In this document: positions 20,982 to 38,905 of the stretch, piece by piece
Numbering within the stretch: the first letter of the stretch is position 1
Layout: each line of letters begins with the position of its first letter
From: Promethearchaeota archaeon Loki_b32
GTDB lineage: Archaea > Asgardarchaeota > Lokiarchaeia > Sigyniarchaeales > SOKP01
Length of the DNA: 64,000 nucleotides
Direction: 5' to 3'
Assembly: GCA_005223125.1 (NCBI GenBank)
Contig: NJBH01000001.1
Span: 160,001 to 224,000 of the forward strand
Notes under the pieces: model-generated
The model's database searches: none
Seen by the model: the letters and a program-made list of their open reading frames with translations, nothing else
Told to the model about the DNA's origin: nothing
Translations under genes and position numbers: made by a program

Positions 20982-21983
20982 TTACTCTAATTTTTGACTA
21001 TTTGATATATATTTTTTTTTTTTCAATCTTTTTAAAATTGCTTTTTTAGTTTCACAGCCAGCAGGTCCTTTTTTTTCAACTAAAAAAGAAGCAGCTGCAG
21101 ATGCTAAATAAGCCGATTTTTCAATTGATTTCCAAGATTTATCCAAATGAATAAATTCATATAGGAATATTGAAAAATACACATCTCCGGCACCGGTCTC
21201 ATCCACAACTCTTTTGGCTTTAAAAGCCGGAATTTTTAAGATGTTTTCACCTCTTTTAGTGAGCATAGAACCTTTTTCTCCCAATGTCATAATGTATATT
21301 CCGTTATTATTGTATTCATAACAGTGAGTTATTACTTCGTCAAAATCATCACATTCCCCTGCAATAAGTTTCATTTCTTCCTCTGAACCTTTCAATATCA
21401 ATCTATCACCTATTAAATCTATTATTTTTCGCATATTAGCTATGATTTCAGTATCATAAACATATTTAACTTTACCATCTTCATCAATTTTTCTAATAAA
21501 ACCTTGTAAATCTATACCTATGTATGCATCAGGAAATTTCTTTAAAATTTGAGATACATATTCATAAGAAATTTCATTACATAATGGTACAAGTACGAAA
21601 ACATCAGGAGGATTTTTAAGAAAATCTAAGGGAATATCATTAAAATCAAGATTAGGACTCCTAGATTTAAGAGTTAAAGTTCTCGTATGATCAAAGTAAT
21701 CTAAAACAAAATTTGTATTTTTTACCTTAGAATATTTAATTCCTCTCAAATTAATATTTTTGTTTTTTATTTTATCCAATAAAGAATTATTAAAATTTAA
21801 TTTACCAATATGAGAAATTATGCTTATTTTAGCGTCTCGAGTGTAAGTTCTTAAAGCTAAAGAGCAGTAGGAAACACTCCCGCCCAAACTTGGCTTGTTT
21901 ATACGCTTAAATCGTATTATATTGTCAACAGCAAAGTGGCCAGCAAAAAAAATAGAAGTATGATTTTTGTTTTGACTACTCAT
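20982..21983 (-). CDS. PfkB-family carbohydrate kinase
   Basis: GGS, TLGEKGS, DETGAGD. Confidence 0.9.
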   Translation of the reverse strand: MSSQNKNHTSIFFAGHFAVDNIIRFKRINKPSLGGSVSYCSLALRTYTRDAKISIISHIGKLNFNNSLLDKIKNKNINLRGIKYSKVKNTNFVLDYFDHTRTLTLKSRSPNLDFNDIPLDFLKNPPDVFVLVPLCNEISYEYVSQILKKFPDAYIGIDLQGFIRKIDEDGKVKYVYDTEIIANMRKIIDLIGDRLILKGSEEEMKLIAGECDDFDEVITHCYEYNNNGIYIMTLGEKGSMLTKRGENILKIPAFKAKRVVDETGAGDVYFSIFLYEFIHLDKSWKSIEKSAYLASAAASFLVEKKGPAGCETKKAILKRLKKKKYISNSQKLE

Positions 21984-23111
21984 TTATGAGGATTTTAATT
22001 CTTCAATGATTTTATTTTTTTCATTTATTGTTAACTTCAGCTTATTTATTTTATTTTGTAAGTCTTCAATTAACCCTGACATTGGTCCTTTATGAACAAT
22101 AGGCTGAGATTGCTGTTTCGCTTTTAGTTCTACAATTAAATGATCCTTTCCTTCTAATTGTTCTTGAAGATTTTTTATTTTTTTATCTGCCTCGTTAATT
22201 TGAGTTGTCCACGTGGCTTCTTGTGATTTATTTTGTAAGGATTTCTGTATCTGTGAAAGTTCATTTTTGAGTTCTTCATTATCTCTCTTAAGGATTTTTA
22301 ATTCCTCTGGTTCCAATTGGAATCCTCCGCTTTCAATGGTTTGTGCAAGCTCAGATTTCTCTTTATTTAATTTTTCCACTATTTTCTTATACTTATTTAA
22401 ATCTGATTGAAGATCTTGGCATAATATTTCTAATGTTTCTGATGAGGGTTTTGTCGATAGGGGTTTTATCACTGATGATTTTGGTTCTTCCACAGGAATT
22501 ACATAATCGATTGGTAATTTTTTCATCTTCTCTAATAATTCTTTGTTTAAAGATTCGTTTTCCTCAGTTAATTCACTAATTCTATTTTCTAATTCGTTAA
22601 CTTTTGTTTTCTTTTTAGATAATTCAGATTTCAAATTATCAATCAAAGCTGTCGTTATTTCAGAACCCTTCCCTGCAGTAGAACTCTCTATTTCTTTTGA
22701 TGTCGTTGAAGCTGCTTCTAATTTCATCTTTAAATCATTAATTTCGTTAATTTTAGATATTAGTTCTACTTCTTTTTCAGTTAGATTTTTTTCTAAGCTT
22801 ATTACTTTATTGTTAAGCATTTTATTTTCTTGTTGAATATCACTTACCTTTACGTTATCAACCATTCCTGCATTTTTTAATTGTTGTTTTAGACTTTTAT
22901 TTTCTTCAATAGTTTTTGTAATTATTACTTCAGTTTTGGTGATTAATTCAATGTTCTCTTTAATTTTATTTCTCAGTCGTTCATTCTCCTCTTCTACTTG
23001 TTTAATTCGCTCTATGGTTTCTCCAATAGCACTTGGTGTTTCTATTTCATTTTCCATCTTTTTTTTCCAAAGACTGATAAAATCCTCAACTTTTTCATTT
23101 TCTTCTGGCAT
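21984..23111 (-). CDS. long coiled-coil protein
   Basis: 375 aa, E/K-rich heptads. Confidence 0.7.
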   Translation of the reverse strand: MPEENEKVEDFISLWKKKMENEIETPSAIGETIERIKQVEEENERLRNKIKENIELITKTEVIITKTIEENKSLKQQLKNAGMVDNVKVSDIQQENKMLNNKVISLEKNLTEKEVELISKINEINDLKMKLEAASTTSKEIESSTAGKGSEITTALIDNLKSELSKKKTKVNELENRISELTEENESLNKELLEKMKKLPIDYVIPVEEPKSSVIKPLSTKPSSETLEILCQDLQSDLNKYKKIVEKLNKEKSELAQTIESGGFQLEPEELKILKRDNEELKNELSQIQKSLQNKSQEATWTTQINEADKKIKNLQEQLEGKDHLIVELKAKQQSQPIVHKGPMSGLIEDLQNKINKLKLTINEKNKIIEELKSS

Positions 23112-23168: not shown

Positions 23169-24053
23169 TTATTTCATTAACACTCCTGAAAAATATCCCA
23201 CACAATATCCACTAATATTTCCAGTTTTTTCAGAACTTGTGTAATATTTTAATAATTTTCCTTTACTTGCATTTAAATTTTTACATATCATCAATAAAGA
23301 AGTTATAGTTTGAGATCCACATACAGTTGTTTTTGAAGCTGTTTCTAGCGTTTTTTCAGGGTTCATATTAACAAAAGCTTCAATTACTTGTTGATCTCTC
23401 TCCTTGAATTTTACTAATTGCTTTGTATCATATATCTCTTTATGGGTCATATCAGAAGATGCAACTATAACCACATCCTTATCGTATGATTCAATTGATT
23501 TCGCAATGTCGTTTGATATTATACTTAAAACATTAAAATCTTTAACAGCAACTTTTATTGGTATAAATTTAACACTTTTTTCTTGAGCACAGTATTTAAT
23601 AAAGGGTAACTGTACTTCGATATTATGTTCTCTTCCAAAAGGATGTCCAATGAATGCCGACTCATCGTTTATAATTTTATTACTATTATCTAATATTCTT
23701 TCAGATAATTCTTTATCAATAGATATATTCCCTAGAGGCGTTTCCCACTCTCCCTCACTCATTAAAGCAATTTTACCATAACCAATATGATCAGTGCCTA
23801 AAATAATAATCGTGTCAGGTATTTTTTCTTTAAATAAATTCAGAAAGGTATATGCTGCGGCACAACCAGAGTAAATATATCCAGCATGAGGGGACACACC
23901 ACCAATAATAGTTCTCTCGTCTTTATTTAAAGTTTTAAATTCCTCACCTGGACCAAATTCTTTATCTAAAAACGAATCTTTTATTATTTTTAGCAAATCT
24001 GGTTTGTAGCGTGGATAAAAGTGACCAGCCACAATAGCCTGTCGAGTGACCAT
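23169..24053 (-). CDS. MEMO1 family protein (AmmeMemoRadiSam protein B)
   Basis: AGHFYP, PHAGYIYSG, WETPLG, EHNIEVQLPF, SSDMTH, CG, VGY. Confidence 0.92.
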   Translation of the reverse strand: MVTRQAIVAGHFYPRYKPDLLKIIKDSFLDKEFGPGEEFKTLNKDERTIIGGVSPHAGYIYSGCAAAYTFLNLFKEKIPDTIIILGTDHIGYGKIALMSEGEWETPLGNISIDKELSERILDNSNKIINDESAFIGHPFGREHNIEVQLPFIKYCAQEKSVKFIPIKVAVKDFNVLSIISNDIAKSIESYDKDVVIVASSDMTHKEIYDTKQLVKFKERDQQVIEAFVNMNPEKTLETASKTTVCGSQTITSLLMICKNLNASKGKLLKYYTSSEKTGNISGYCVGYFSGVLMK

Positions 24054-24173: not shown

Positions 24174-24782
24174 TTGATGAACCAGATAAACGACAAACAA
24201 ATATCTCTTGATGATATCGAAGTACCAGAAAAAATTCCTACAAAATTCATAAATAACCGAGTGATTGTTTTTAACTCACTTTTTGCGTCTTATTTATATG
24301 TTAAAGGTATCAATGGACAACGTTTTTTTGGTTCCCCATTAGGGATTAGTAAGCCGCGATTGGAGTATTTCTCAAAACCATCAGAACTATCGTTAATTGA
24401 AGCATATTATTTATTACAAAGAGAAGCTATAACAATTTTTCACGTAAAAGAAAACAAATATTTAATATCTGAAGAATTCTATGAGATTGCAAAAAAAAAT
24501 CATCATAAGTTTAAAGAAAAATACATTATCTACAAAGATTTAAGAGATAGAGGATATATTCCTAGGCCTGGACTAAAGTTCGGAGCCGATTTTGTGATTT
24601 ATCGTCTTGGTCCAGGGCTTGAGCATTCTCTTTTTATGGTTCATGTTTTACCACATGATGCTGAAATTACTGCGATTGATATGGTCAGAGCTGGTCGTTT
24701 AGCAACCTCAGTGAGAAAAAAATTTGTAATTGCCAATCCTCTTACGTGCAGTTATTACTTTTTTGAGTGGTTCAAACCTTGA
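24174..24782 (+). CDS. endA: tRNA-intron endonuclease, catalytic subunit
   Basis: LSLIEAYYL, YKDLRDRGY, GLKFGADFVIY..GPG.EHS, RLATSVRKK (Tyr/His/Lys triad). Confidence 0.9.
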   Translation: MMNQINDKQISLDDIEVPEKIPTKFINNRVIVFNSLFASYLYVKGINGQRFFGSPLGISKPRLEYFSKPSELSLIEAYYLLQREAITIFHVKENKYLISEEFYEIAKKNHHKFKEKYIIYKDLRDRGYIPRPGLKFGADFVIYRLGPGLEHSLFMVHVLPHDAEITAIDMVRAGRLATSVRKKFVIANPLTCSYYFFEWFKP

Positions 24783-24806: not shown

Positions 24807-26627
24807 TTAGATTGTTAGACTTCTTAATCTTTTCAGTAATTTATTCTTTAATTCTTCAATTAGGTAGAAATCATCATTTTTAACAGAATGTCTAATTCTT
24901 AAAATTTCATTAATAATCTCAGAATCTAAGAAATTTTCAATTAAAATACCTTGTTCTATAAGTAATTTCCCTTCATTATAAATTAAGAGAATGATTTTAA
25001 TTAGACCCAATAATTTTTTAATTTTAGTATAATTGTCGATATCATCAAAAGCACTCTGAATTAAAAAACCATTTTTAATTAATCTTGCGAGGAAAAGAAC
25101 TAGTTGTTGATCATCAGGTAAATTTTTTTCTCCTATGAGTTGAATAATATAAGTTAATTCTTTCTCTTCTGATAATATCTCATTTACTTGTTTTCGACAC
25201 TCAATCCAATCAATATCGATCTCGGGCCAATCAATATCCCTTTCATACCACCATTCAGCGATTAATGGAGCATAATTTGAATATGAATTCATCCAATTTA
25301 TTGCAGGATAGTGCTTTAAATAAGCCAATTTTTGGTCTAATGCCCAAAATGATTGTACTAATCGCTTAGTGGTTGCGGTAACAGGTTCACTAAAATCAGC
25401 TGCAGGAGGTGAAATTGTACCAATAATAGTTAATGATCCCTTTCTCCCAATTCCTTGATGATCTGTTCCAAGTGTTTTAACAACCCCAGCCCTTTCATAG
25501 AAATTTGAAAGCTTTGATGGCAAATAAGCAGGATACCCTTCTTCTGCGGGCATTTCTTCTAACAATCCAGAGATCTCTCTAAGAGATTCTGCCCATCTTG
25601 AGGTGCTGTCTGCGAGAACAGCAACATCATATCCCATATCTCGAAAATATTCTGCTATTGTTACTCCAGAGAATAAACTAGCCTCTCTTGCTGAAACGGG
25701 CATATTTGAAGTATTAGCTATTAGAACAATACGTTCTAATAAAGGACGTCCAGTTTGAGGATTTATTATTTCAGAAAATTGCTTTAGAATATTTGCAATC
25801 TCGTTCCCTGGTTCTCCACACCCTATAAATACAACAACATCAGCATTACTCCATTTAGCTAAAGATTGTTGTATTACTGTTTTTCCTGTCCCAAAACCGC
25901 CAGGTATTGCTGTAGTACCTCCTTTTGCTATTGGAAATAACAAATCTATAACTCGCATTCCTGTAATTAATGGTTCACTAGGGTTTTCTTTCCTGGCATA
26001 AGGGCGATTTACTGTAATTGGCCATTTTTGCATCATTGAAAATGATTTCTCTTGAGAATTTATTTTCAATTTATATATTTCATCTATAATTGTATAATCA
26101 CCCTCATCAGAGATAAATGAAAGAGTGCCTGAATGATATGGAGGAACCATAATATTATGCTCAAAGTTTTGTGTTTCTTGAACAGTACCTATGATATCAC
26201 CGCTATTAATTTTGTCTTTTATCTTTCTTAATGGAATAAAATGCCACTTTCTGGTCCTAGATAAAGGAGGAAATTTAATACCCCTTTCCAATCCTCCAGA
26301 GCCAAAATTTTTAAAAACTTCTTTTAGGGGTCTTTGAATCCCATCAAAAACATTAGATATTAATCCAGGAGCTAATTCCATTGATAGAGGCTCGTTTAAA
26401 TTGATAACCTCTTCATTTAATTTTACCCTTATTGTGTTTTCATAACATTGTGCTATGATATGGTCAGAATATATTTGTATTACTTCCCCCAATATTTGAT
26501 AGTTTGATATTTTCACAAGATCATGAAGCCGAACATGATTCTCTAATCCTTTAATTTTAATGAGAGATCCAATAATTGCTGATATATAGCCTGTATTGAA
26601 TCCTTTGTTAGATTCTTCCATATACAA
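24807..26627 (-). CDS. atpA: A/V-type ATPase subunit A, second copy (A') with GEPGNE in place of GERGNE
   Basis: [35 protein letters not shown]; closely similar to 31656-33500. Confidence 0.93.
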
Positions 26628-26648
26628 TTAATACCCCCTAAATTTCAA

Positions 26649-27089
26649 TTAATAAATAATTTGATGCTTACAAAATGGGCATGTGTCTACAAAATTTGGT
26701 ACTATATTACCACAATTTTCACATTTTTTAATTATTGATTTACGATATTTAAAATCAAGATTAACCGGTTTGAAGATTTTTGTTTGAGATTGCTGTAAGC
26801 CTTTTTTTCTTTTACTAGATATTTGTGCCTTTTGATTATTGATTTTTATTTTTCTTCGTCTGTCTGGAAACATTCTAGAATAAAGAGACCTTTTATTTCT
26901 CCTCAAGAAAGGTCCAATAGTAGTTAAGAAAACAAATACTACTAATAATGTTATTATTAAAGGATTGAAACCAAATTCAAGAAGGAGAAAATAGAAATAA
27001 AGTAATATACTTAAATATACAACCAGTATTATTGACCGAATAATTAGTTTTTTTCTATTTAACCTATTTTGAATTTCTTCATTAGACAT
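26649..27089 (-). CDS. 2-TM membrane protein with basic linker and C-terminal Zn ribbon
   Basis: two hydrophobic helices, K/R-rich linker, CENC..CPFC; lies inside the ATPase operon. Confidence 0.75.
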   Translation of the reverse strand: MSNEEIQNRLNRKKLIIRSIILVVYLSILLYFYFLLLEFGFNPLIITLLVVFVFLTTIGPFLRRNKRSLYSRMFPDRRRKIKINNQKAQISSKRKKGLQQSQTKIFKPVNLDFKYRKSIIKKCENCGNIVPNFVDTCPFCKHQIIY

Positions 27090-27118: not shown

Positions 27119-29605
27119 TTATTGAAATTTTTTCAATATATACTTCTTAGCTTTATTAATTTCTTCTTTTACTGATTTGGTATCAATTTCTTTTTCGATC
27201 TCTTCAATAATAATATCCTTATCGATTTCTCCCCTAAAATTGATAATCGAATAATCATTATCTAAATAAAATGGAAAATATTCAATTCCTGCCCCCCGAT
27301 AGAACTTAAAGAAGAATTCGTAGAAGTGCAAACGAAGAGCATTGATAAAAACTAATAATCCTTCTAATAAGATTACAACTAAATTACCAAATATCGCCCC
27401 AATAAAATTTACAATCTCTACTCCAATACTCTCTCCCTCAATCAACGCTGACATGGCATTTATAGAATATAATAATGCTATATGAGCTAATGCCAATGCT
27501 AATAATCTGATATAAGATGCAACATTACTCATAATAGATAAAGCAGTGTCGAATGCTTCAATTGAACCTTCACCTAATAAACCTCCAAAAGATTCATTTT
27601 GTAAATATGAAATTTTAAATAATTTGCCAAAAGGTTTCGATATTAGCAAAAGAATTCCAGGAATTAAAACTAGTAATATAGGATATGGATCCGCGAACCA
27701 AGTATATATAGCAAAACCATATCCAAAAATTAAAACTGTTCCTCCTGTTAATAATAGAATTTTAATAAAGGAATCGCTAAATGCTAAATATTTTCTATGT
27801 TGTTTCCAGTAATTTAAAAATTGGATAAACCAACCCAAATTGATGTGAAAAACACCAATATATACAGCAAAGGTGAATACATTCATTATATTATTCAATG
27901 GATTAAATAGAGTGATATTAAAAATTCTTAAATCAAATATTCCTTGGAGGTTTAATAAGTACATAATTAAACTAAATAATGCCATACACACACCAAGACC
28001 AATAAATCTTTTCCCCAATCTACGCTTTATCGCAATAATTAGAACTCCAATAATAACTAATATTCCTCCAATGATTACTATATATCCCAAGAACTGTATA
28101 ACTAACAATGCAATCGAAGCAATGGATATCGGTTTAAGATGCCAAATTACATTTCCAAATATTTCTATTTCATGCATTCCAAAAAATTCTCCATATAAAA
28201 ATCCAACAAAAATGGCAGCCCAACCGCAAAAGAAAATTATCCAACATAGATTTACGACGTCTTTACTTCGTTTTCTTAATAATATCGCACCTAATATTCC
28301 AGAAATTATAAGAATTACTCCATGTCCAATATCACCAAACATCAAACCGAAAAGTATTGGAAAAGTTATAGCTATAATTGGAGTAGGATCTATTTCAGAA
28401 TAATTAGGTGTTCCATACATTTTGGTAATAGTTTCAAAAGGTTTTACCAGAAAGAAATTTTTCATAATAGTTGGCGCTTTTTCCCTCAAATCTTCTTTTT
28501 CTTCATGTTCTTCTATCTCTTCATCTACACTAATGTATTTTTCTTTAAGTTCTCCCTTTTTTTTCTTCTTATCAATTTTTTTTGTTTTTGAAATGGACGT
28601 TTCATATATTGGCTGTTTTTTAGATATATCAAACGTCTCAAAAATTATATTATCTTTAAAAGTTTTAAATAAAATCTGTAGTATTTCTTCTTTTTTTGAA
28701 ATTGGAACAAAAAATTTGAGTATTAAACGATTTGAAGATGATCGTTCGAATTGCTGTTCAACCCAATTATACTCTTCAATGTTTTGTACAATTTCATTAA
28801 TACCCACGATTTTTGCTAAATTATCTGATGTAATTCGATTTTGTTCTTTCCTATATCTTGATACTAAGTTTTCAATAAATTTAATCTCCTTATTTATTCT
28901 CGAAAAATTAATTCCCTCATTTGTTAAATATTTTTTTAATATTGGAACTTCTTCAGAATGAATTAATCGAATCCTTCCTCTAAATTCTTCTTCTTTATCT
29001 TTTGGATAAAGAATATAAAAACCAATTCGATCATCAGGAATTTCAAATACCTCATAAAAGTTAGGAAATTCTGAGAAATCAAGAAGATTTTGGAGATTAG
29101 TAAAATTTTTAGAAAATGTAGTAAAAACTCTAAACTTAAATTGTTTTAAGTCATCAATTTTATCTTTACTAAAATTTAATTTTTCTAAATATGTATAGCT
29201 CGCTTTTAGTGTACGAAGATTTTCTAATTCTATTATTCCTTGTGAAATATAATTATTTAGTTCGGTAAATCTATTTGCAAAAAAATCTATTTCTTCAAGG
29301 AGATGAGTAATTAATTCATGTAAATCTTTTGCTACAAATTCAGCTCTTTTATCCTTATCAACTTTCGTTTCTAAGAGCTCATATTCATTTAAATTAAGCC
29401 TTTTAAGTAAACTATTTAAATTTTTCCTTAAAGTCTTAATAGATTCTCTAATTGAATCTTTTTCCTCCAATTTTTCCTTAATTTCAGGTTTTTCTCTTTG
29501 TTTTATATGAACGGAGTTTATATTAGACAATACAACAAGAAATTGATCTTTAAAATTCTCGTTAAGTTCGGCTTTAATTAAACTAAATTCATCTTTCCTT
29601 ACCAT
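27119..29605 (-). CDS. atpI: A/V-type ATPase subunit I (a)
   Basis: PNYSEIDPT, FGLMFGDIGHG, SYIRLLALALAH (essential Arg), LRLHFYEFF. Confidence 0.95.
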   Translation of the reverse strand: MVRKDEFSLIKAELNENFKDQFLVVLSNINSVHIKQREKPEIKEKLEEKDSIRESIKTLRKNLNSLLKRLNLNEYELLETKVDKDKRAEFVAKDLHELITHLLEEIDFFANRFTELNNYISQGIIELENLRTLKASYTYLEKLNFSKDKIDDLKQFKFRVFTTFSKNFTNLQNLLDFSEFPNFYEVFEIPDDRIGFYILYPKDKEEEFRGRIRLIHSEEVPILKKYLTNEGINFSRINKEIKFIENLVSRYRKEQNRITSDNLAKIVGINEIVQNIEEYNWVEQQFERSSSNRLILKFFVPISKKEEILQILFKTFKDNIIFETFDISKKQPIYETSISKTKKIDKKKKKGELKEKYISVDEEIEEHEEKEDLREKAPTIMKNFFLVKPFETITKMYGTPNYSEIDPTPIIAITFPILFGLMFGDIGHGVILIISGILGAILLRKRSKDVVNLCWIIFFCGWAAIFVGFLYGEFFGMHEIEIFGNVIWHLKPISIASIALLVIQFLGYIVIIGGILVIIGVLIIAIKRRLGKRFIGLGVCMALFSLIMYLLNLQGIFDLRIFNITLFNPLNNIMNVFTFAVYIGVFHINLGWFIQFLNYWKQHRKYLAFSDSFIKILLLTGGTVLIFGYGFAIYTWFADPYPILLVLIPGILLLISKPFGKLFKISYLQNESFGGLLGEGSIEAFDTALSIMSNVASYIRLLALALAHIALLYSINAMSALIEGESIGVEIVNFIGAIFGNLVVILLEGLLVFINALRLHFYEFFFKFYRGAGIEYFPFYLDNDYSIINFRGEIDKDIIIEEIEKEIDTKSVKEEINKAKKYILKKFQ

Positions 29606-29616
29606 TTATAGCATAC

Positions 29617-30267
29617 TCAAATTGTTTTTTGTTTTTGGATAATTATATCTTTTGTTTTTTTTAATCTAATATAGTTTTCTCTTTCGATTTCTTCTAATAT
29701 CTCTCGAATTTTTTTAATATTAAATTTTAATCTTGGTATTATTAAATTTTTTAGACCATTTATCCTACGATTGATTTTTTTAAAATTTATAGCGTGTTTT
29801 AAAATCAGATCCTCAATTTCAGAAAATTGGATTAATTGTTCAAAAAATATTTTTAATACATTAATTAAATCATCCAAATAATGACTTGTGTTTTCGAATG
29901 TATAAGCAGGAAGTTTCTCTTCTTGAATTAATTCATATTTAATCTTTGGAATCATTATTCCTGCTTTTTTTTTATGTTGAATCTCAATTTTAGGTTTATA
30001 TTGGATCCTACTTAATTTACTAATTAAAAATAAATTATTCTTACCCATCTCTTCATAAGTGAGATTTAGCAATTTTAGTGATTTCTTAAATAGAGAGAGA
30101 AATTCTTTCCTATTTGTCTTATATTGTTTCCACAATTTTCTCAGTTCGAAAATTAATTGTTTTCTCCTGAATTCTAAAAAATTTTCTCCTTTGTCTGCAA
30201 ATGCTAACCTTTTTTGCAGTGCCATTAAATTCGATTTCGTTGGCTTAATCTCTCTAAAACTTATAAT
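29617..30267 (-). CDS. atpD: A/V-type ATPase subunit D
   Basis: NRRINGLKN.IIP, LEEIERENYIRLKK; conserved KPTKSNL lies upstream of ATG 30225, so the start is extended to ATT 30267 or ATA 30264. Confidence 0.88.
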   Translation of the reverse strand: MISFREIKPTKSNLMALQKRLAFADKGENFLEFRRKQLIFELRKLWKQYKTNRKEFLSLFKKSLKLLNLTYEEMGKNNLFLISKLSRIQYKPKIEIQHKKKAGIMIPKIKYELIQEEKLPAYTFENTSHYLDDLINVLKIFFEQLIQFSEIEDLILKHAINFKKINRRINGLKNLIIPRLKFNIKKIREILEEIERENYIRLKKTKDIIIQKQKTI

Positions 30268-31659
30268 CTACACCCTTGCTTGAAAGTATTTATCAATATA
30301 TTTTTGATGAATTCTCATTAATTGATTAGGATTTAAATTAGAAATCACATCCCACGCTATATTAAGAGTATTCTCAAAAGTTCGATTCTCATCTTCTTTT
30401 TGATTTAAAAACCGTTGTTCAAAATCGATCCCAAATTTTAATAAATTTTTTTGTTCATAATTTAAGCCATCTTCTCCTACAATTGAAATTAAATCCTTTA
30501 CTTCAAGATAGTTAGAATATGAAGATAATAATTGTGAGCTAATATCAGCATGATCTTCTCGTGTTTTCTCTGCTCCAATTGCATCTTTCATTAATCGTGA
30601 AATCGATGCTAAAACTTCGAAAGGAGGGTATACACCTTTCTTATGTAAATCTCGGCTAAGTACTAATTGTCCTTCAGTTATATAACCCGTAGTATCCGGT
30701 ATTGGATGAGAGATATCATCATTGGGCATTGTTAATATTGGTATTTGAGTTATCGATCCTTTCTTTCCTTTGATTTTACCAGTCCTTTCATAAAGAGATG
30801 CAAAATCAGAATATATATATCCCGGATATCCTTTTCTACTAGGAATTTCTTCTTTTGCAGTGCTTAATTCTCTCAATGCTTCAGCATAATTTGTCATATC
30901 AATTAAAATTACTAGAACATGCATATCTTTTTCAAAAGCAAAATATTCTGCTGTTGTTAATGCTATTCTTGGAATTATCAATCGTTCAATTATAGGATCG
31001 TCAGCAAAATTGATAAAAGAAATGATATTTTGTAAACTACCAGTTTCTTGAAAACGTTTTAAAAAATAAATTGCGTCATCATGAATTATTCCAATCCCAC
31101 AAAATATAATTACAAATGATTCCTCCGAAATAACTTTTGCCTGTGATGCTATTTGAGCCGCTAATTTATTGTGAGGTAATCCTTGAACACTAAAAATAGG
31201 AAGTTTTTGACCTCGTATTAAAGTAAACAAACCATCGATTACAGATATACCTGTTTGTATGATATCTACAGGATATTCTCTGGCAAATGGATTAATAGGA
31301 ACCCCATTTATATCTCTTTGAACCTCAGTTAAAATATCAGAATCTAAAGCGATTTTAGTTTTAATATCAATTGGTTTTCCTAATGAATTAAAGGTTTGCC
31401 CAAACATATCTTTAGAAATTTTTACTTGAAATGTATCTTCAGTAAATATGATTTCAGCGTTTTCTGAAGAGATTCCTGTAGTTTCTTCGAAAACTTCAAC
31501 AACAATTACTTGTTCATCCATCTTGACGACTTGTCCTGTGCGAGTTTTACCATCATTTGTTTTAATTTTTACTATCTCACCATACTGTGCATTGTGTTCA
31601 TTCTTGAGAAATATTAATGGTCCAATAATTTGTTGGATTTTTTTATATATTACACTCAT
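30268..31659 (-). CDS. atpB: A/V-type ATPase subunit B
   Basis: TGISVIDG, RGQKLPIFS, DMTNYAEALRE, GYPGYIYSD, HPIPDTTGYITEGQ, SRLM. Confidence 0.95.
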   Translation of the reverse strand: MSVIYKKIQQIIGPLIFLKNEHNAQYGEIVKIKTNDGKTRTGQVVKMDEQVIVVEVFEETTGISSENAEIIFTEDTFQVKISKDMFGQTFNSLGKPIDIKTKIALDSDILTEVQRDINGVPINPFAREYPVDIIQTGISVIDGLFTLIRGQKLPIFSVQGLPHNKLAAQIASQAKVISEESFVIIFCGIGIIHDDAIYFLKRFQETGSLQNIISFINFADDPIIERLIIPRIALTTAEYFAFEKDMHVLVILIDMTNYAEALRELSTAKEEIPSRKGYPGYIYSDFASLYERTGKIKGKKGSITQIPILTMPNDDISHPIPDTTGYITEGQLVLSRDLHKKGVYPPFEVLASISRLMKDAIGAEKTREDHADISSQLLSSYSNYLEVKDLISIVGEDGLNYEQKNLLKFGIDFEQRFLNQKEDENRTFENTLNIAWDVISNLNPNQLMRIHQKYIDKYFQARV

Positions 31660-33500
31660 AATTTTCTGAATACTCCATATGATATTTTCATAGATTCAAT
31701 CTCATTAATTAAATTATTTTTTATTTCTTCTATTTTATTGAAATCTTCATTACGAATTGAATGGTTAATTCTTAATATCTCAATTATAGTTTTAAGTTCT
31801 TTAATATCTTCCAGTAAAAATCCTTGCTTAAGTAGTTCCTTACCTTCTTTATACAACAATAGAATAATCTTTATCATTCCTAAAAGTTTCCTAACACCTG
31901 TATAATTATCTATGTCATCAAACGCATTTTGGATTAGAAATCCGTTTTTAATCAATTTTGCAATAAATAAAGTTAATTGCTGGCTTTCAGGTAAATTTTC
32001 TTCACCTATTAATTGAATAATATACTTCAATTCATTATCTTGAGATAAAATGTCGTTCACTTGTTTTCGGCAATCAAACCAATCAATATCGATTTCTGTC
32101 CAGGTAATATCTCTTTCATACCACCATTCTGAAATATAATCGGGGTAATTAGAATAAGAGGTCAACCAATTTATAGCGGGATAATGTTTTGAATAAGCTA
32201 ATCCCGCATCTAAAGCCCAGAACCCTTGAACAAAACTTTTCGTGGTTGTCGTCACTGGTTCGCTAAAATCACCCGCGGGAGGAGAAATTGATCCAATAAT
32301 GGTCAAAGAACCCGTTCTTTCCGTCCCAGATTCTGAATTACCAAACAACTTGACTATTCCAGCTCGTTCATAAAAACTTGAGAGTTTAGATGGTAAATAT
32401 GCAGGATACCCCTCTTCAGCAGGCATTTCTTCTAACAACCCGGAGATTTCTCTAAGAGATTCTGCCCATCTTGAGGTGCTATCTGCGAAAACAGCAACAT
32501 CATATCCCATATCTCGATAGTATTCAGCAATAGTCACACCAGAAAAAATACTGGCCTCTCTTGCTGAAACTGGCATGTTTGAAGTGTTTGCAATTAAAAT
32601 GATGCGATCTAATAAAGGATTACCAGATTTTGGATCGATTAATTCAGAGAATTGTTTTAAAACATCTGCAATCTCGTTTCCTCTTTCTCCACAACCAACA
32701 TATACGCAAACATCAGCATCACACCATTTAGCTAAGGATTGTTGTATAACTGTTTTACCAGTTCCAAAACCTCCGGGAACTCCAACTGTACCCCCCTTTG
32801 TAATGGGAAATAATAAATCAATAACACGTATCCCTGTAATTAAAGGTATATTGGAGATTGTTCTCTCCTTAAAAGGACGGGTTATAGTTATTGGCCATTT
32901 TTGTAACATAGAAAAAGATTTTTCTTTATTATTCTTTTTTAGCTTATATATCTCATCAATAATAGTATATTCGCCTTCGTCTGAGAGGAAAGACAATTTT
33001 CCTGAATTATTTGGAGGAACTAATATTTTATGTTCTATCATTGGAGTTTCTTGGACTACACCAATTAAATCTCCTTCATTTACATTATTTTCATTTTTAT
33101 TTTTAGGAGTAAAGTGCCACTTCTTTGAACGTGATAAGGGAGGCAATTCTAATCCTCTTTGTAGTCCTCCATCTTTAAAAAGACCGAAAGCTTTTTGTAA
33201 AGGTCTTTGGATACCGTCAAAAACATTTCCCAATAATCCTGGTGCTAATTCCATCGAAAGGGGTTCATTTAAATTAACAACCTTTTCATTAATCCGTAAA
33301 TTAGAAGTGCTTTCAAAACACTGAGCAACAATATAATCAGAATAAATTTGAATTACTTCTCCTAAAATATTATGTTTCGTAATTTTAATAAGGTCATGAA
33401 GACGAATCTGAGCTTCCAAACCTTTAATCTTAATTAATGATCCTGTGATTGCTGAAATATAACCTAATATAGAATTGGTTTCAGAATTGGATTTGTTCAT
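31656..33500 (-). CDS. atpA: A/V-type ATPase catalytic subunit A
   Basis: [16 protein letters not shown] intact, [16 protein letters not shown]. Confidence 0.95.
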   Translation of the reverse strand: MNKSNSETNSILGYISAITGSLIKIKGLEAQIRLHDLIKITKHNILGEVIQIYSDYIVAQCFESTSNLRINEKVVNLNEPLSMELAPGLLGNVFDGIQRPLQKAFGLFKDGGLQRGLELPPLSRSKKWHFTPKNKNENNVNEGDLIGVVQETPMIEHKILVPPNNSGKLSFLSDEGEYTIIDEIYKLKKNNKEKSFSMLQKWPITITRPFKERTISNIPLITGIRVIDLLFPITKGGTVGVPGGFGTGKTVIQQSLAKWCDADVCVYVGCGERGNEIADVLKQFSELIDPKSGNPLLDRIILIANTSNMPVSAREASIFSGVTIAEYYRDMGYDVAVFADSTSRWAESLREISGLLEEMPAEEGYPAYLPSKLSSFYERAGIVKLFGNSESGTERTGSLTIIGSISPPAGDFSEPVTTTTKSFVQGFWALDAGLAYSKHYPAINWLTSYSNYPDYISEWWYERDITWTEIDIDWFDCRKQVNDILSQDNELKYIIQLIGEENLPESQQLTLFIAKLIKNGFLIQNAFDDIDNYTGVRKLLGMIKIILLLYKEGKELLKQGFLLEDIKELKTIIEILRINHSIRNEDFNKIEEIKNNLINEIESMKISYGVFRKL

Positions 33501-34209
33501 AATACCTTAAATACTCTGAGATTTTTTCTTTTTGTTTTTGTATAAAATTCTCGAATTCATTTTCAATTCCTTTAATTTCTGCATCATTTATAATTTTTGA
33601 AATTTCCATTTGAATAAATGATGATTTCTTATCTATTAAATTATCAATTGTATAATCATAAGAGATAAACCCTCCTGTAAGTGATATTTTGAAACCACCT
33701 ATAAAATCATGTTGATCTTTATTAATTTCTACTGGATTCTTAAATAAATCAACAATTATATCAAAATTTTTAATGAAGTAATTGTAATCCTTACTGTTAA
33801 ATTTTAATTCTATTTCTTGAGGCTTATCTATGGCAAATTTGGCATTTTGTATAGATTTCAATAAATATGCAATATAATCAGAGTAATTGTTTTCAATTCT
33901 TTCTTTAATAAGAATATATAAATTTAACTTTAATTCTTTAATCAGTCTATTCTTTAAACTTAATAGAGTTTCTTTGCCCTTTAATAGGGTTGATGATAAG
34001 GATTGGTTTAAGAATTGTTCATAACTTTCTATAAGATGGCTTTTTAGTTTTATTGATCTCTCGCGCGATCTTTCTAAATATCTCTTTTTTATTTCCGCTT
34101 TATGAAATAATGTTTTTTGATTCAATTCTTTAATTTCTTTCTGTGCTTTCTCTATTAAATAAAGGCCTAAGTTTCCAAATTGTTTCCTTAATTCTTTTTC
34201 TTCTGAAAT
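33481..34209 (-). CDS. atpE: A/V-type ATPase subunit E
   Basis: N-terminal coiled coil, FIGGFKIS...YDYTID; frame open to ATT 34209 (annotated TTG at 34125). Confidence 0.8.
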   Translation of the reverse strand: MSEEKELRKQFGNLGLYLIEKAQKEIKELNQKTLFHKAEIKKRYLERSRERSIKLKSHLIESYEQFLNQSLSSTLLKGKETLLSLKNRLIKELKLNLYILIKERIENNYSDYIAYLLKSIQNAKFAIDKPQEIELKFNSKDYNYFIKNFDIIVDLFKNPVEINKDQHDFIGGFKISLTGGFISYDYTIDNLIDKKSSFIQMEISKIINDAEIKGIENEFENFIQKQKEKISEYLRYYEQIQF

Positions 34210-34220
34210 TTTAAATCATC

Positions 34221-34547
34221 TCATTTTATTAAAACAACATCACCTATAGCGTCAACAATTCTATCTAAAATAATACCTTCTTTCTCAATATTAAAATGGA
34301 AAATATCTGGTAAAATAAATATAAATGGATTTCTATTAGTTTGCTTGAAATCCAATAAATACTCAATAATTTCATTTGATAAAGGTAAAGCTATAATCAA
34401 CATGCCGATTGAATCTCTATTTGTTAATTCTGTGAATTTTTTTAAAAAGTCTTCTTCATTTTCAACAACACTACCATCTAAACCTAAAAGTCCTAACATT
34501 GATACAATTTCTTCTTCACCTAAGATATAAATATTTTGCTCAACCAT
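34221..34547 (-). CDS. atpF: A/V-type ATPase subunit F
   Basis: IYILGEEEIVSMLGLLGLDG, PFIFILP, DAIG; 108 aa; operon position. Confidence 0.85.
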   Translation of the reverse strand: MVEQNIYILGEEEIVSMLGLLGLDGSVVENEEDFLKKFTELTNRDSIGMLIIALPLSNEIIEYLLDFKQTNRNPFIFILPDIFHFNIEKEGIILDRIVDAIGDVVLIK

Positions 34548-34858
34548 TAGAAATCAAGTCCAACTTCTTCAATAATTAATTTTTGTAAATTTTCCAAATT
34601 TTTTTTAAATTCAGTTTCAATATTTTGAATTGCCTTATCTAATTTTTTCTCAAAAGTATTGGTTTTAATATCACTTTCTACTGTAATATTTCCTATAGCT
34701 GTATTTACAAGAACATTTATTTTTATAATGAAATCCTCAAATTTTTCATTTTGTTCTTTTCTATATTCTTCAATTTCGTTTAAATTAAGTTTTTTGGCAT
34801 TACCGATTAAATCTTCATAAACTTTTTCAATATCCTTTACCCATTCGAACAGATCCAT
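34547..34858 (-). CDS. probable ATPase peripheral-stalk subunit H/G
   Basis: 103-aa charged helical protein inside the operon. Confidence 0.6.
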   Translation of the reverse strand: MDLFEWVKDIEKVYEDLIGNAKKLNLNEIEEYRKEQNEKFEDFIIKINVLVNTAIGNITVESDIKTNTFEKKLDKAIQNIETEFKKNLENLQKLIIEEVGLDF

Positions 34859-34902: not shown

Positions 34903-35964
34903 TTATTTTAATAATTTATATTTCTCGTGAATAATATTAACTACTTTTGGTAACACAAATAAACGAATTTCATTATCTTTTTTAATTAAAACTTCAATAA
35001 TCTTAAAAATTGCTTGATAGTCAATATCATCAATCTTAATCTTAAATGTTTTAAAAAAAATATCCAAGTATAAGGTCTCAAGAGACCAAATTAAATGGGT
35101 CTCATCAAGTTTAAAGGTTTTTAGTTTTTTTTTAATTTCTTTTTTTTCATTTAAATATTGATTTAGCTTTAACATATAAGATTCTACATCTGGTTGATTC
35201 AATAAAGTTAACAATTTATTTTTATCTAGAAATAAATAAGTGTCAACTAGAAATTGTGATAATAATTTTCTCTCAATATTGTTTTTAATTCCCCTGTATA
35301 TTACATTTAAATTGTATATTTCTGAGATATTCTTCAGATACAATGATATCATAAATCTCTCTTTATGACCTAAAACTCTCATCTCATTTTTCAAATTTTC
35401 ATAATATATCTGATCCAAAAATGCTTCGAGAACAAAAATTTCGTTAGTATTTTTAAAGTATAGAATTCCCTCTCTTATTGCTATGTTATATTTTGTTTGT
35501 TTCATTAATAATTGAATCTTATCTAGGGATGATAATTCAATCAATTCATTCATAAATTCAGTGTTACCTAGATATTTTTCTACTAATTTATTAACCATTA
35601 ACGATTTTTCAGCAATGCTCATTCCTAAAATAGTGCCGAGAACAACGCGCTTTATATTCATTATTTCGTATTTTATTAGATAGTTTTTTAAAAAGATTCT
35701 CATAGTCCTCGGTGAAATTAAAATAATCTTTCCGATTAACTTAATATAAGTATGAAATAATTCTCTTTCAATTTCTTCAATTGTATAAGAACTAAGATTA
35801 AGACCAGGATAATAAATGCTAATAAACTCAATTAATTGCTTAATTTCATTTATTTCTTCTAATTTATTTAGCGTGATCTCATCCATCACTAATTGCTTCA
35901 AAAAGCCAATTCTTATGAAAGTGTACGCGTAACTTGGCACAGTGACACTCGTGGTATTCACCAA
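34903..35964 (-). CDS. atpC: A/V-type ATPase subunit C (d)
   Basis: YAYTFIRI, YEIMNIK, LEAFLDQIYY, EIYNL..IYRG; about 350 aa. Confidence 0.85.
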   Translation of the reverse strand: MVNTTSVTVPSYAYTFIRIGFLKQLVMDEITLNKLEEINEIKQLIEFISIYYPGLNLSSYTIEEIERELFHTYIKLIGKIILISPRTMRIFLKNYLIKYEIMNIKRVVLGTILGMSIAEKSLMVNKLVEKYLGNTEFMNELIELSSLDKIQLLMKQTKYNIAIREGILYFKNTNEIFVLEAFLDQIYYENLKNEMRVLGHKERFMISLYLKNISEIYNLNVIYRGIKNNIERKLLSQFLVDTYLFLDKNKLLTLLNQPDVESYMLKLNQYLNEKKEIKKKLKTFKLDETHLIWSLETLYLDIFFKTFKIKIDDIDYQAIFKIIEVLIKKDNEIRLFVLPKVVNIIHEKYKLLK

Positions 35965-36008: not shown

Positions 36009-36380
36009 TTAATTAGTAAGAGGTGTCGGTATTTTTGTCCAAAGTAAGATTGCTACTATCAATCCGTAAACTGCTAATGCTTCACAAAGAGCAACAACGA
36101 GAAAAGCTTTAAAGAACGCTTCTTCTCGTTCTGAAAGTGCTGAGATCGCAGCTGTTCCAACAGTTTTCATAGCCCAAGCACTCCCTAATACTGCAGCACT
36201 TACTGAAATTGCAACTGATAATCCTAATACCATAGTAGTCGCAGAATCATAATAATCAAAAGCATCAGGAACTTGAGCCGCTACGAAAGATATAATTCCA
36301 TTTGAAGTAAAAATTACTAAGAAAATCAAAATAAATTGGAAGATACTAAGTAATAAATAAAATTTATGTTTACCGTTCAT
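36009..36380 (-). CDS. atpK: A/V-type ATPase proteolipid subunit K (c) with N-terminal leader
   Basis: VGTAAISALSE..., ALCEALAVYGLIVAILL (ion-binding Glu); one hairpin plus an extra N-terminal hydrophobic segment. Confidence 0.9.
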   Translation of the reverse strand: MNGKHKFYLLLSIFQFILIFLVIFTSNGIISFVAAQVPDAFDYYDSATTMVLGLSVAISVSAAVLGSAWAMKTVGTAAISALSEREEAFFKAFLVVALCEALAVYGLIVAILLWTKIPTPLTN

Positions 36381-36578: not shown

Positions 36579-37214
36579 TTATTGATAAAGTAAAACCCGT
36601 ATTATGTCTGCAATATCATGAATTCGATCAGCTAATTGTTCTAATAATACAATACTATCTCGTAAACGCAAGAGTACTCTAATATTCAAATTCTCATTGG
36701 AATATATATACTCAAGAAATTGCCGATATATTGTATCAATTTCATTTTCAATCTCATGAATCGCTGTGGTATTTTTAAACACTACATCTGGTTTATCTCT
36801 TAGACTTTTAATCGTTGACTTCAAAACAGTAGCCATATTAATTGTTTTATTAATTAGTTTTTCATATCTCTTACCGATCTCCTTATTACTTTTACCATCC
36901 AATTTAATCTTAGGCAACATATCCACGAATTCTAAAGGATAGTTTATAACATTATCCATTTTTAAAATTAACGCTATAAAATCGCCTAAATCAGCTCCAG
37001 CTTCAGAATATTTCTGAATTAACTCAATTTTAATAACATCTGCATCCTCTTCAGATAATTGCATTTTGCTTTTCTTCTTGTCTAGAGAAGCTTTATTCTT
37101 CTCATAATCTTCAGCCCATCCGCTGTAAAAAACACCCATATCACTAAGAACAGAATAAATAATTCTAGAGTGTTCAATAAGCATTGAAATGATTTCGTCT
37201 CGAATTTTATTCAT
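36579..37214 (-). CDS. DUF47/PhoU-like phosphate transport regulator
   Basis: repeated E..AD / E.EID motifs, LEQLADRIHDIAD. Confidence 0.8.
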   Translation of the reverse strand: MNKIRDEIISMLIEHSRIIYSVLSDMGVFYSGWAEDYEKNKASLDKKKSKMQLSEEDADVIKIELIQKYSEAGADLGDFIALILKMDNVINYPLEFVDMLPKIKLDGKSNKEIGKRYEKLINKTINMATVLKSTIKSLRDKPDVVFKNTTAIHEIENEIDTIYRQFLEYIYSNENLNIRVLLRLRDSIVLLEQLADRIHDIADIIRVLLYQ

Positions 37215-37425: not shown

Positions 37426-38070
37426 ATGAAATTAAATAAAACTATTCAGCAATGGAAGCAATATTCAAAAATGTCTGATTTGGGAGAAATTGCTCGACGT
37501 AAATTTTTTAATAATTGTTTTGATGGCGCTTTGACATGTTCAGGTATTGTTAGTGGAATATTTATTATTTTTCTCTCGGGTTCTTCTATTTTTATCCCAA
37601 GAAATGTTATTATAACAGGTTTTGCCACAGCTCTTGCAATTGGGATTTCTGGTTTATGGGGCGCATTTCTTTCTGAAGAAGCTGAAAGAAAGAAAAAAAT
37701 GTTGGATATGAAAAAAGAGATGGCAATTATAGAAGAAGAAGGGGATGAAAAAACGGGTAAACCTAAAAAGAATAATATACAAGATAAACCATTACTGGAG
37801 AGGGCTGAAAATTTTGCTACCATTATTGCTTCATTGGTAGATGGAGGTGCTCCAGTACTAGGAAGCTCACTTCCATTGATTCCATTTTTCTTTGGATCTT
37901 CTTTAACAATAGTTCATTTTATCTCCTCATACGTTATTCTTATCGGTTTACTTATATATTTAGGGATCTTTTTAGGAAAAATTTCAGGAGGCGGCCGTAT
38001 TAGATATGCACTTCATTTAGTGACCGCTGGTGGTGTTACCTTATTAGTCTCTTTAGCACTTGGAATTTAA
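37426..38070 (+). CDS. VIT1/CCC1-family transporter
   Basis: ARRKFFNNCFDG, GISGLWGAFLSEEAE, DGGAPVLGS.LPLIPFF. Confidence 0.8.
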   Translation: MKLNKTIQQWKQYSKMSDLGEIARRKFFNNCFDGALTCSGIVSGIFIIFLSGSSIFIPRNVIITGFATALAIGISGLWGAFLSEEAERKKKMLDMKKEMAIIEEEGDEKTGKPKKNNIQDKPLLERAENFATIIASLVDGGAPVLGSSLPLIPFFFGSSLTIVHFISSYVILIGLLIYLGIFLGKISGGGRIRYALHLVTAGGVTLLVSLALGI

Positions 38071-38194: not shown

Positions 38195-38905
38195 ATGTTT
38201 GAAAGAGCTAAAACATACGCAAAAATTACAAATTTATGGGGAATTGCTCGGCGTTATTTTGTAAATAACTTCTATGATGGTATGCTAACAGTTCTAGGAA
38301 TCCTGCTAGGATTCTTGGTTTTAATTCTTAAGGAAGATCAAACTTCAATTGATAGTCATCTTGTGATTTTAACAGGGGTAGGGAGTTCGATATCAATGTT
38401 TATATCAGGATTAACTGGATCATATCTTTCAGAAAAGGCTGAACAAAAAAAAATGAAAGAGGAATTGGATCGAGCAATGGTAATAATTAAAAGTGAGGTG
38501 GAAGAAACACTAGAGAATTCTGCTGATATTAAGGAGATAGAAAAAGCTATGTTGATCAAAATAAATCATAATGTAAATTTAAAAGCTAAAAGAAGAATAG
38601 GGAAAAAAAAAAAAAAAATTAAAACTCTTCAAGAAAAAGCTGAGATTTTTGCAAGTATTATTGTCTCACTTATTAATGGCGGTTCTCCATTTTTAGGGGG
38701 TTTAGTACCTCTAATTCCCTTTTTTCTTGTATCGACCGCTAATTTATCAATTTTTCTGATATCTTTTTTAATAATTCTTATTTGTATAATATTACTTGGA
38801 ATCTTTTTAGGGGTAATTTCAAAGGAATCTATTCTTAAAAATGTGATTCAGATGACATTTGCATTTTTTATAACCATACTTATCTCAGTATTTTTGTTAA
38901 GATAA
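38195..38905 (+). CDS. VIT1/CCC1-family transporter, paralog
   Basis: ARRYFVNNFYDG, SGLTGSYLSEKAE, GGSPFLGGLVPLIPFF; contains an A16 tract. Confidence 0.8.
   Translation: MFERAKTYAKITNLWGIARRYFVNNFYDGMLTVLGILLGFLVLILKEDQTSIDSHLVILTGVGSSISMFISGLTGSYLSEKAEQKKMKEELDRAMVIIKSEVEETLENSADIKEIEKAMLIKINHNVNLKAKRRIGKKKKKIKTLQEKAEIFASIIVSLINGGSPFLGGLVPLIPFFLVSTANLSIFLISFLIILICIILLGIFLGVISKESILKNVIQMTFAFFITILISVFLLR

Follow-up and report, generated by a model that had tools for sequence, protein, structure and literature searches.

The window, a 64,000-nucleotide stretch of a Lokiarchaeia contig, carries an A/V-type ATPase operon with two genes for the A subunit, the second of which (A′) probably encodes a near-idle third kind of head subunit found in one large Lokiarchaeia family. 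We put the probability that A′ is both under selection and much impaired in catalysis at roughly 0.8. Minus-strand genes follow the order K-C-H-F-E-A-B-D-I-orfZ-A′ (Table 1), within which the arrangement of E, F, G/H, C, and K matches that of relatives, which are placed in Promethearchaeota (Lokiarchaeia) and include SOKP01 and Loki_b31 contigs. Because the gene adjoining A′ (24174 to 24782) lies convergent on the plus strand, the operon ends with A′. As rotary-ATPase head genes, the genome contains a single B, two A copies, and no others. The A′ reading frame, open for 606 codons, starts at a TTG (26627) just 3′ of an AGGGGG purine run; an alternative ATG at 26621 would give 604 aa. A promoter and terminator scan of the locus, of a type not suited to archaea, remained at chance level.

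Several neighboring genes can be named by appearance. A PhoU/DUF47-like gene (36579 to 37214, minus strand) lies immediately 5′ of K, where it is kept in many relatives, and two VIT1-like membrane genes (37426 to 38070 and 38195 to 38905, plus strand) are divergent from it. At the other end, the gene convergent on A′ is tRNA-splicing-endonuclease-like, and beyond it are MEMO1-like (23169 to 24053), coiled-coil (21984 to 23111), and PfkB-like (20982 to 21983) genes on the minus strand. This block borders the operon in most relatives, with or without A′.

Table 1. Genes and A′ residues of the ATPase locus, in positions of the window
Feature	Position	Strand	Remarks
A′, second A/V-type ATPase A subunit	24807-26627	-	ORF, Pfam, predicted structure; predicted near-inactive
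Lys501 of A′	25125-25127	-	Charge reversal at first acid of DELSEED-like rotor-facing loop; aligns with E. hirae A D480
Ala410 of A′ (SPPAAD)	25398-25400	-	G in 69, A in 1 of 70 A′; outside A′ signature
Leu318 of A′	25674-25676	-	Second invariant A′-specific residue; L in 70/70 A′, I in 59/59 A and 11/11 outgroup
Asn279 of A′ (arm helix)	25791-25793	-	Asp in A (59/59); N in 60 and D in 3 of 70 A′
Pro273 of A′, codon CCA	25809-25811	-	Replaces gamma-phosphate/Pi-binding Arg (E. hirae A R262, T. thermophilus A R258, E. coli beta R182)
Walker A of A′, residues 243-250	25878-25901	-	Intact; K249 in 70/70, T250 in 67, S in 3
orfZ	26649-27089	-	Two hydrophobic helices and C-terminal CxxC-x10-CxxC ribbon
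Subunit I (a)	27119-29605	-	PF01496
Subunit D (rotor)	29617-30225	-	PF01813
Subunit B	30268-31659	-	Sole B of genome; SRLMK arginine finger motif intact
Canonical catalytic subunit A	31656-33500	-	Arg273 codon AGA at 32682-32684
Subunit E	33481-34125	-	Putative, by position
Subunit F	34221-34547	-	Pfam
Subunit G/H	34547-34858	-	Weak Pfam
Subunit C	34903-35964	-	Pfam
Subunit K	36009-36380	-	Putative, hairpin with Glu

Residues were compared between 70 A′ and 59 family A sequences. One defining feature of a catalytic A, the phosphate-binding Arg, fails in A′: position 273 is Pro in 70/70 A′ and Arg in 59/59 A, so the Arg-to-Pro change on which the first-pass annotation had built holds across orthologs. 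A′ is 71% identical to A at the protein level and about 31% identical to B. It retains the P-loop, the catalytic Glu272 (T. thermophilus E257; 70/70), and PF16886, with no degenerate P-loop or Glu loss of the kind seen in B and alpha. K249, E276, Q524, and loop 357 to 369 are likewise unchanged, and Phe245 is invariant, as are Asp340, Arg344, and Ser406 (70/70), which together with Y or F at position 440 (70/70) correspond to T. thermophilus D325 (Walker B Asp), R329 (second Pi Arg), S385 (Ser of the catalytic water), and F419 (adenine aromatic). Among the differences, position 423 is F in A and L, V, or I in 70/70 A′, S437L occurs in 68/70, and D279 is lost in 67/70. Position 501 is E in 58/59 A and basic in 56/70 A′ (K in 49, R in 7), with the later acids of this loop mostly kept. 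The DELSEED-like loop of E. hirae A begins at D480 (PMC3772951). Since F1 torque requires neither charge in the rotor loop nor residue-specific rotor contacts (PMC5380711), K501 is no proof of uncoupling. At position 451, equivalent to the arginine finger position going by known motifs, A′ has N (65), T (2), I (2), or H (1) and never Arg or Lys. A role for A′ as a substitute for B was rejected, as A′ cannot stand in for B without the finger; the SRLMK motif is kept in 53/53 family B.

All sequence facts in the first-pass annotation hold, namely, the two paralogous A subunits, the GER-to-GEP change with its CCA and AGA codons, the intact 606-codon frame, the Walker motif, and an insert shared by A and A′. 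The insert is less telling than had been suggested, being a family trait that also occurs in single-A genomes. SPPAAD in A′ versus SPPAGD in A is also a real difference, but its reading as a second lesion fails, because it is found in a single A′ sequence, that of this genome.

A′ has the four-domain A architecture of barrel, nonhomologous region, nucleotide-binding domain, and C-terminal helical domain (PF02874, PF16886, PF00006, and PF22919). Its structure, predicted from 85 sequences, has the A fold (pLDDT 86; pTM 0.89), and Foldseek comparison gave TM scores of 0.90 to 0.92 to the A subunits of E. hirae and T. thermophilus, with 0.92 for E. hirae A in 3VR4. Pro273 is placed at the start of the arm helix in this confident model, which suggests that the fold is intact. 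A′ shows raised variation in its N-terminal barrel, its rotor-facing loop, and its C-terminal domain. Invariant columns number 2 in the barrel of A′ versus 11 in that of A and 0 versus 8 in the C-terminal domain; constraint is also relaxed at crown residues G47 and E48, and the basic C-terminal tail that A carries is largely absent. Residues 301 to 400, which by homology hold the inter-subunit and rotor-sleeve loops, are nearly equally conserved in the two proteins (entropy of 0.44 in A′ versus 0.39 in A). Their conservation despite divergence of the synonymous sites in this region between A′ and A argues for ring assembly.

The likely effect of the Pro can be judged from published chemistry of the residue that it replaces. 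R262 of E. hirae A contacts the gamma-phosphate in the tight state (PMC5095293), and R258 of T. thermophilus A is equivalent to F1 beta R189, a Pi ligand (PMC2775895). In E. coli beta, loss of the Arg lowers ATPase activity about 2,000-fold, with 0.020 µmol/min/mg in R182Q and 0.25 in R182K versus 42, such that R182 mutants retain 0.05 to 0.6% activity; both lack Pi binding and ATP synthesis, and in R182Q the transition state is lost, while MgADP binding, for which the residue is unneeded, is spared (PMC3268026). By analogy, A′ should bind MgADP, hold ATP less tightly, and turn over very slowly, and the earlier proposal that A′ binds nucleotide but turns over poorly would thus follow from mutants of the same residue. 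It is unlikely, in our judgment, that A′ is instead a slow or retuned catalytic isoform, forming A′3B3 or mixed heads with altered kinetics or direction bias. Such an isoform would be in keeping with the residual activity of the E. coli mutants, with the fold predicted to be intact around the Pro, and with the equivalents of the other catalytic residues mutated in T. thermophilus A (E257, S385, F230, and F419 [PMC2775895]), which are invariant or conservatively kept in A′; it stays alive because Glu272 and Ser406 are invariant. However, among the 70 A′ sequences no basic residue that could compensate has become fixed at sequence positions close to the site, Pi binding and ATP synthesis are lost in E. 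coli even when the Arg is exchanged for Lys, and A′ was never the sole A in any contiguous operon examined.

Purifying selection acts on A′, a point that the first-pass annotation had proposed to check. In 13 disjoint genome pairs, the dN/dS of A′ ranged from 0.10 to 0.30 (median, 0.14) and that of A from 0.10 to 0.16 (median, 0.12), as estimated by the Nei-Gojobori method, which is only approximate when dS is high. Pro273 is encoded by all four Pro codons and Leu318 by all six Leu codons across A′. Two marks of a pseudoenzyme paralog, loss of a key catalytic residue and purifying selection on the gene, are thus found together. Fourfold synonymous sites of A and A′ in the source genome are near saturation (mismatch, 0.61), so that A′ can be explained neither as an echo of the assembly nor as a sequencing misread; both were rejected on these grounds together with residue invariance and dN/dS, and the earlier remark that the two-base change was unlikely to be a read error stands. 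Patchy loss within the family and an amino acid rate 1.4 to 1.5 times that of A in the core and C-terminal domains might suggest a decaying or neutral duplicate, but dozens of full-length open frames, the low dN/dS, two invariant A′-specific residues with free synonymous change, and survival of A′-specific residues through homogenization (see below) argue against decay or artifact so strongly that we count this reading as refuted. One outcome that the first-pass annotation had named as refuting its own proposal, A′ orthologs with a retained Arg or in decay, was accordingly not observed.

A′ forms one clade (support, 100/99; SH-aLRT of 97 when long branches and the g12 copies were excluded). 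In the unconstrained tree, this clade is nested among A copies, although monophyly of the family A copies, without the two deepest (G045 and G046), is not rejected (p-AU = 0.098). Groupings of the A tree and of the B+D+I tree are repeated in the A′ subtree. This fits one duplication early in the family with some later losses, on a poorly resolved backbone where the tree forces at least two changes. Two genomes, G043 (contig L193) and G042 (L223), have an A/A′ mismatch at 4-fold sites of 0.27 to 0.30 versus 0.54 to 0.68 in 31 other genomes, which points to gene conversion. The apparent homogenization runs along the whole gene, and positions 213, 279, and 432 of A′ have the residue of A, but P273, L318, T404, V423, L437, and K501 are retained. 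Resistance of these six residues to homogenization suggests that the A′-specific state is itself selected. Independent reduplication with six convergent changes is a less likely account of these two genomes.

The distribution of A′ was surveyed with the GEPG motif in genomes at least 80% complete. The motif was found in 42/49 genomes of the genus, in 73/117 genomes of the family other than the source genome, and in no ATPase of 214 other Asgard genomes, a count that paralogs inactivated otherwise would escape. Motif matches in 4/214 non-family Asgard genomes were at the level of the reversed control, none being an ATPase, and bacterial matches were all due to chance. With the middle codon left free, the matches listed (150 from 135 family genomes) contained only Arg (88) or Pro (62) codons by our own count. 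In the operons compared, the A copy after orfZ always has Pro and the A copy before B has Arg; since the split follows operon position, the grouping into A and A′ is not circular. The order I-orfZ-A′, to which the first-pass annotation had drawn attention, is conserved in these operons, and A′ is operon linked in nearly all genomes that have it. In 19 family genomes, I-orfZ is followed by another gene and no second A was found in the genome, which indicates that A′ is dispensable. No column of B or D in the family alignment tracks A′ presence cleanly, and no co-occurring partner gene was found. Contigs L102, L124, and L127 carry NCBI titles of Hermod-, Odin-, and Hodarchaeota, labels that look wrong since the genome set places them in the Lokiarchaeia family; they correspond to family genomes G069, G084, and G010, and spread to other Asgard phyla was rejected.

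The survey also brought up unusual head genes. Diverged A′ copies (55 to 58% identity) lie off-operon and without orfZ in G059 (L211:6072-7922) and G058 (L230:1238-3007); both keep the Pro, and the G059 copy also keeps Leu318. In G062 (genus g20; 97% complete), the sole A found (L217:11124-12977) carries Ile (ATA) in place of the catalytic Glu, and its P-loop is altered to GAVGTGKT. Subunit I of G062 differs around the essential Arg, and there is no orfZ; this operon may be degenerating. A subunits of 1,150 to 1,170 aa in G074, G054, and G049 (L219, L220, and L222) have a large insertion at or near the P-loop, probably an intein, and enlarged B frames of about 680 aa in G070, G101, G110, and G138 resemble the enlarged A. 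Some family genomes have a second, unrelated A-type ATPase cluster (L044 of G022 and L221 of G121), with an A about 45 to 48% identical and with I-K and A-B on opposite strands. Neither A nor B was found with the query used in G018, G066, and G148 (92 to 98% complete), which would reflect an assembly gap or a real loss of the ATP synthase.

The gene between I and A′, orfZ, had been proposed as a cotranscribed partner of A′. Its product has two hydrophobic helices and four Cys that are invariant in 53 homologs, and it falls in an Atlas cluster of 147 unnamed archaeal proteins. In genus g22 (L203, L224, L225, and L227 to L229), orfZ has a second Zn ribbon. The gene follows I in genomes with and without A′, and also in a neighboring family; it predates A′ and is retained after loss of A′, and in G058 and G059 an A′ persists at a distance from it. 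A dedicated partnership was therefore rejected on gene distribution, and orfZ is better regarded as a candidate accessory protein of the ATPase in general.

How a selected but impaired A subunit would act can be outlined as follows. A single duplication, of A alone and close to the root of one Lokiarchaeia family, would have given rise to A′, which became a third type of head subunit. A′ retains the fold of A together with its P-loop, its Mg and adenine residues, and the residues of its inter-subunit loops, and has a fixed Arg-to-Pro change at the phosphate site. From known chemistry, such a site would bind MgADP but poorly bind Pi or form the transition state. Conserved inter-subunit loops suggest that A′ still meets B, and the two A proteins would compete for the one B available. 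Most activity is lost in F1 hybrids that contain one dead catalytic subunit, and by this precedent a ring holding A′ could not complete three-site rotary catalysis and would idle. In this way A′ would limit ATP waste. Of the explanations considered, we favor this one, at even odds: A′ would be a parking or inhibitory subunit, pairing with B and leaving the head idle. A more specific version is tentative, namely, that heads are built from three P-loop subunits (A, A′, and B) and that A′, a young second loss of catalysis, parks the ring in an ADP-bound state. Several points count against inhibition. Equimolar free mixing would leave only 12.5% of heads as A3, a costly brake, so that A′ would have to be made at a low or regulated level or its exchange controlled; the invariant Glu272, Ser406, Phe245, Arg344, and Asp340 exceed the obvious needs of a dead enzyme; the relaxed G47, E48, and C-terminal domain could mean that A′ never completes a ring; and A′ is absent from many family members, with no B or D column following its presence cleanly.

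The relaxed regions would also suit an assembly placeholder or B buffer, that is, a transient nucleotide-stabilized A′B unit in which A′ is swapped for A and does not remain in the finished enzyme. The core interface region is conserved and the barrel, rotor loop, and C-terminal domain are not similarly constrained, the basic tail is mostly missing, the P-loop is kept, and ATP binding to A is crucial for V1 formation according to the title of Imamura 2006 (cited in PMC2775895). We regard this as rather unlikely, because many family members assemble the enzyme without A′ and the strict fixation of Pro273 is not obviously required for chaperoning. Less probable still is a role for A′ apart from the rotary enzyme, such as sensing of the ADP/ATP ratio together with a different partner. 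A site that lacks the Arg should be less able to tell ATP from ADP, and the diverged copies persist off-operon in G058 and G059, but the invariant inter-subunit loops, the operon linkage, and the failure to find a co-occurring partner gene speak against such a role.

If the inhibitory reading is true, an extra A without the Arg would add a third subunit type to the head and a different means of turning the enzyme off, by swapping in an idle subunit, which is plausible in slow-growing sediment archaea. It would also be a living replay of the ancient catalytic/noncatalytic split. The ancient A/B and beta/alpha pairs do not permit a direct test of the steps from catalytic to noncatalytic; here, these steps are directly testable because the duplication does not extend beyond one family and A′ still shares 71% identity with A. 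Where annotations and phylogenies list two atpA genes for these genomes, one of the two may be idle. No description of a GEP-type A paralog was found in the literature searched, which was mainly openly accessible, and none appears in the passages seen of an Asgard transporter survey (PMC7997004) and of two ATP synthase evolution papers. The present analysis contributes the set of residues resistant to conversion, the change in the rotor loop, the restriction of G410A to one genome, and the independence of orfZ.

The accepted picture of rotary ATPases is one of strict 3+3 rings in which three sites work; the brakes known for them are small, separate proteins. Compared with the catalytic A subunits of known structure (P. 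horikoshii 1VDZ/3M4Y, T. thermophilus 3GQB/7VAI, and E. hirae 3VR4), A′ has the same four-domain fold (TM score, 0.90 to 0.92; 42 to 44% identity) and keeps Walker A and B, the catalytic Glu, and the adenine pocket. It differs in having Pro for the arm Arg, mostly Asn for the arm Asp, mostly Lys or Arg for the first acid of the rotor loop, and a shorter C-terminal tail, and it sits beside a canonical A without a B of its own. E. coli F1 beta R182Q and R182K lack the same residue (PMC3268026) but are F-type laboratory mutants with Gln or Lys, whereas A′ is an extra A-type gene with a natural, selected Pro. Additional head-subunit paralogs are also known from extra gene sets (Mycoplasma F1-like, truncated cytoplasmic operons, and second A-ATPase operons). 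Those sets duplicate the catalytic and noncatalytic subunits as a pair; here, A alone is duplicated and appended to the main operon, with no noncatalytic partner gene beside A′ in the source genome, which has a single B, or in relatives. Epsilon, zeta, IF1, and V-ATPase subunit H are inhibitory regulators that stop wasteful ATP hydrolysis, the role proposed for A′, and do so as separate proteins that block the rotor or an interface; A′ would instead take the place of a catalytic subunit. Subunit B and F1 alpha are kept paralogs of the catalytic subunit that lost catalysis, a loss that is predicted for A′. Like alpha, A′ keeps Walker A, and unlike B and alpha, it keeps the catalytic Glu and has no arginine finger. 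Alpha lost the Glu and B lost the P-loop (10.64898/2026.10.01.756066); A′ lost the Arg instead and would most likely work in a manner like that of noncatalytic alpha or B, or of a dominant-negative pseudoenzyme.
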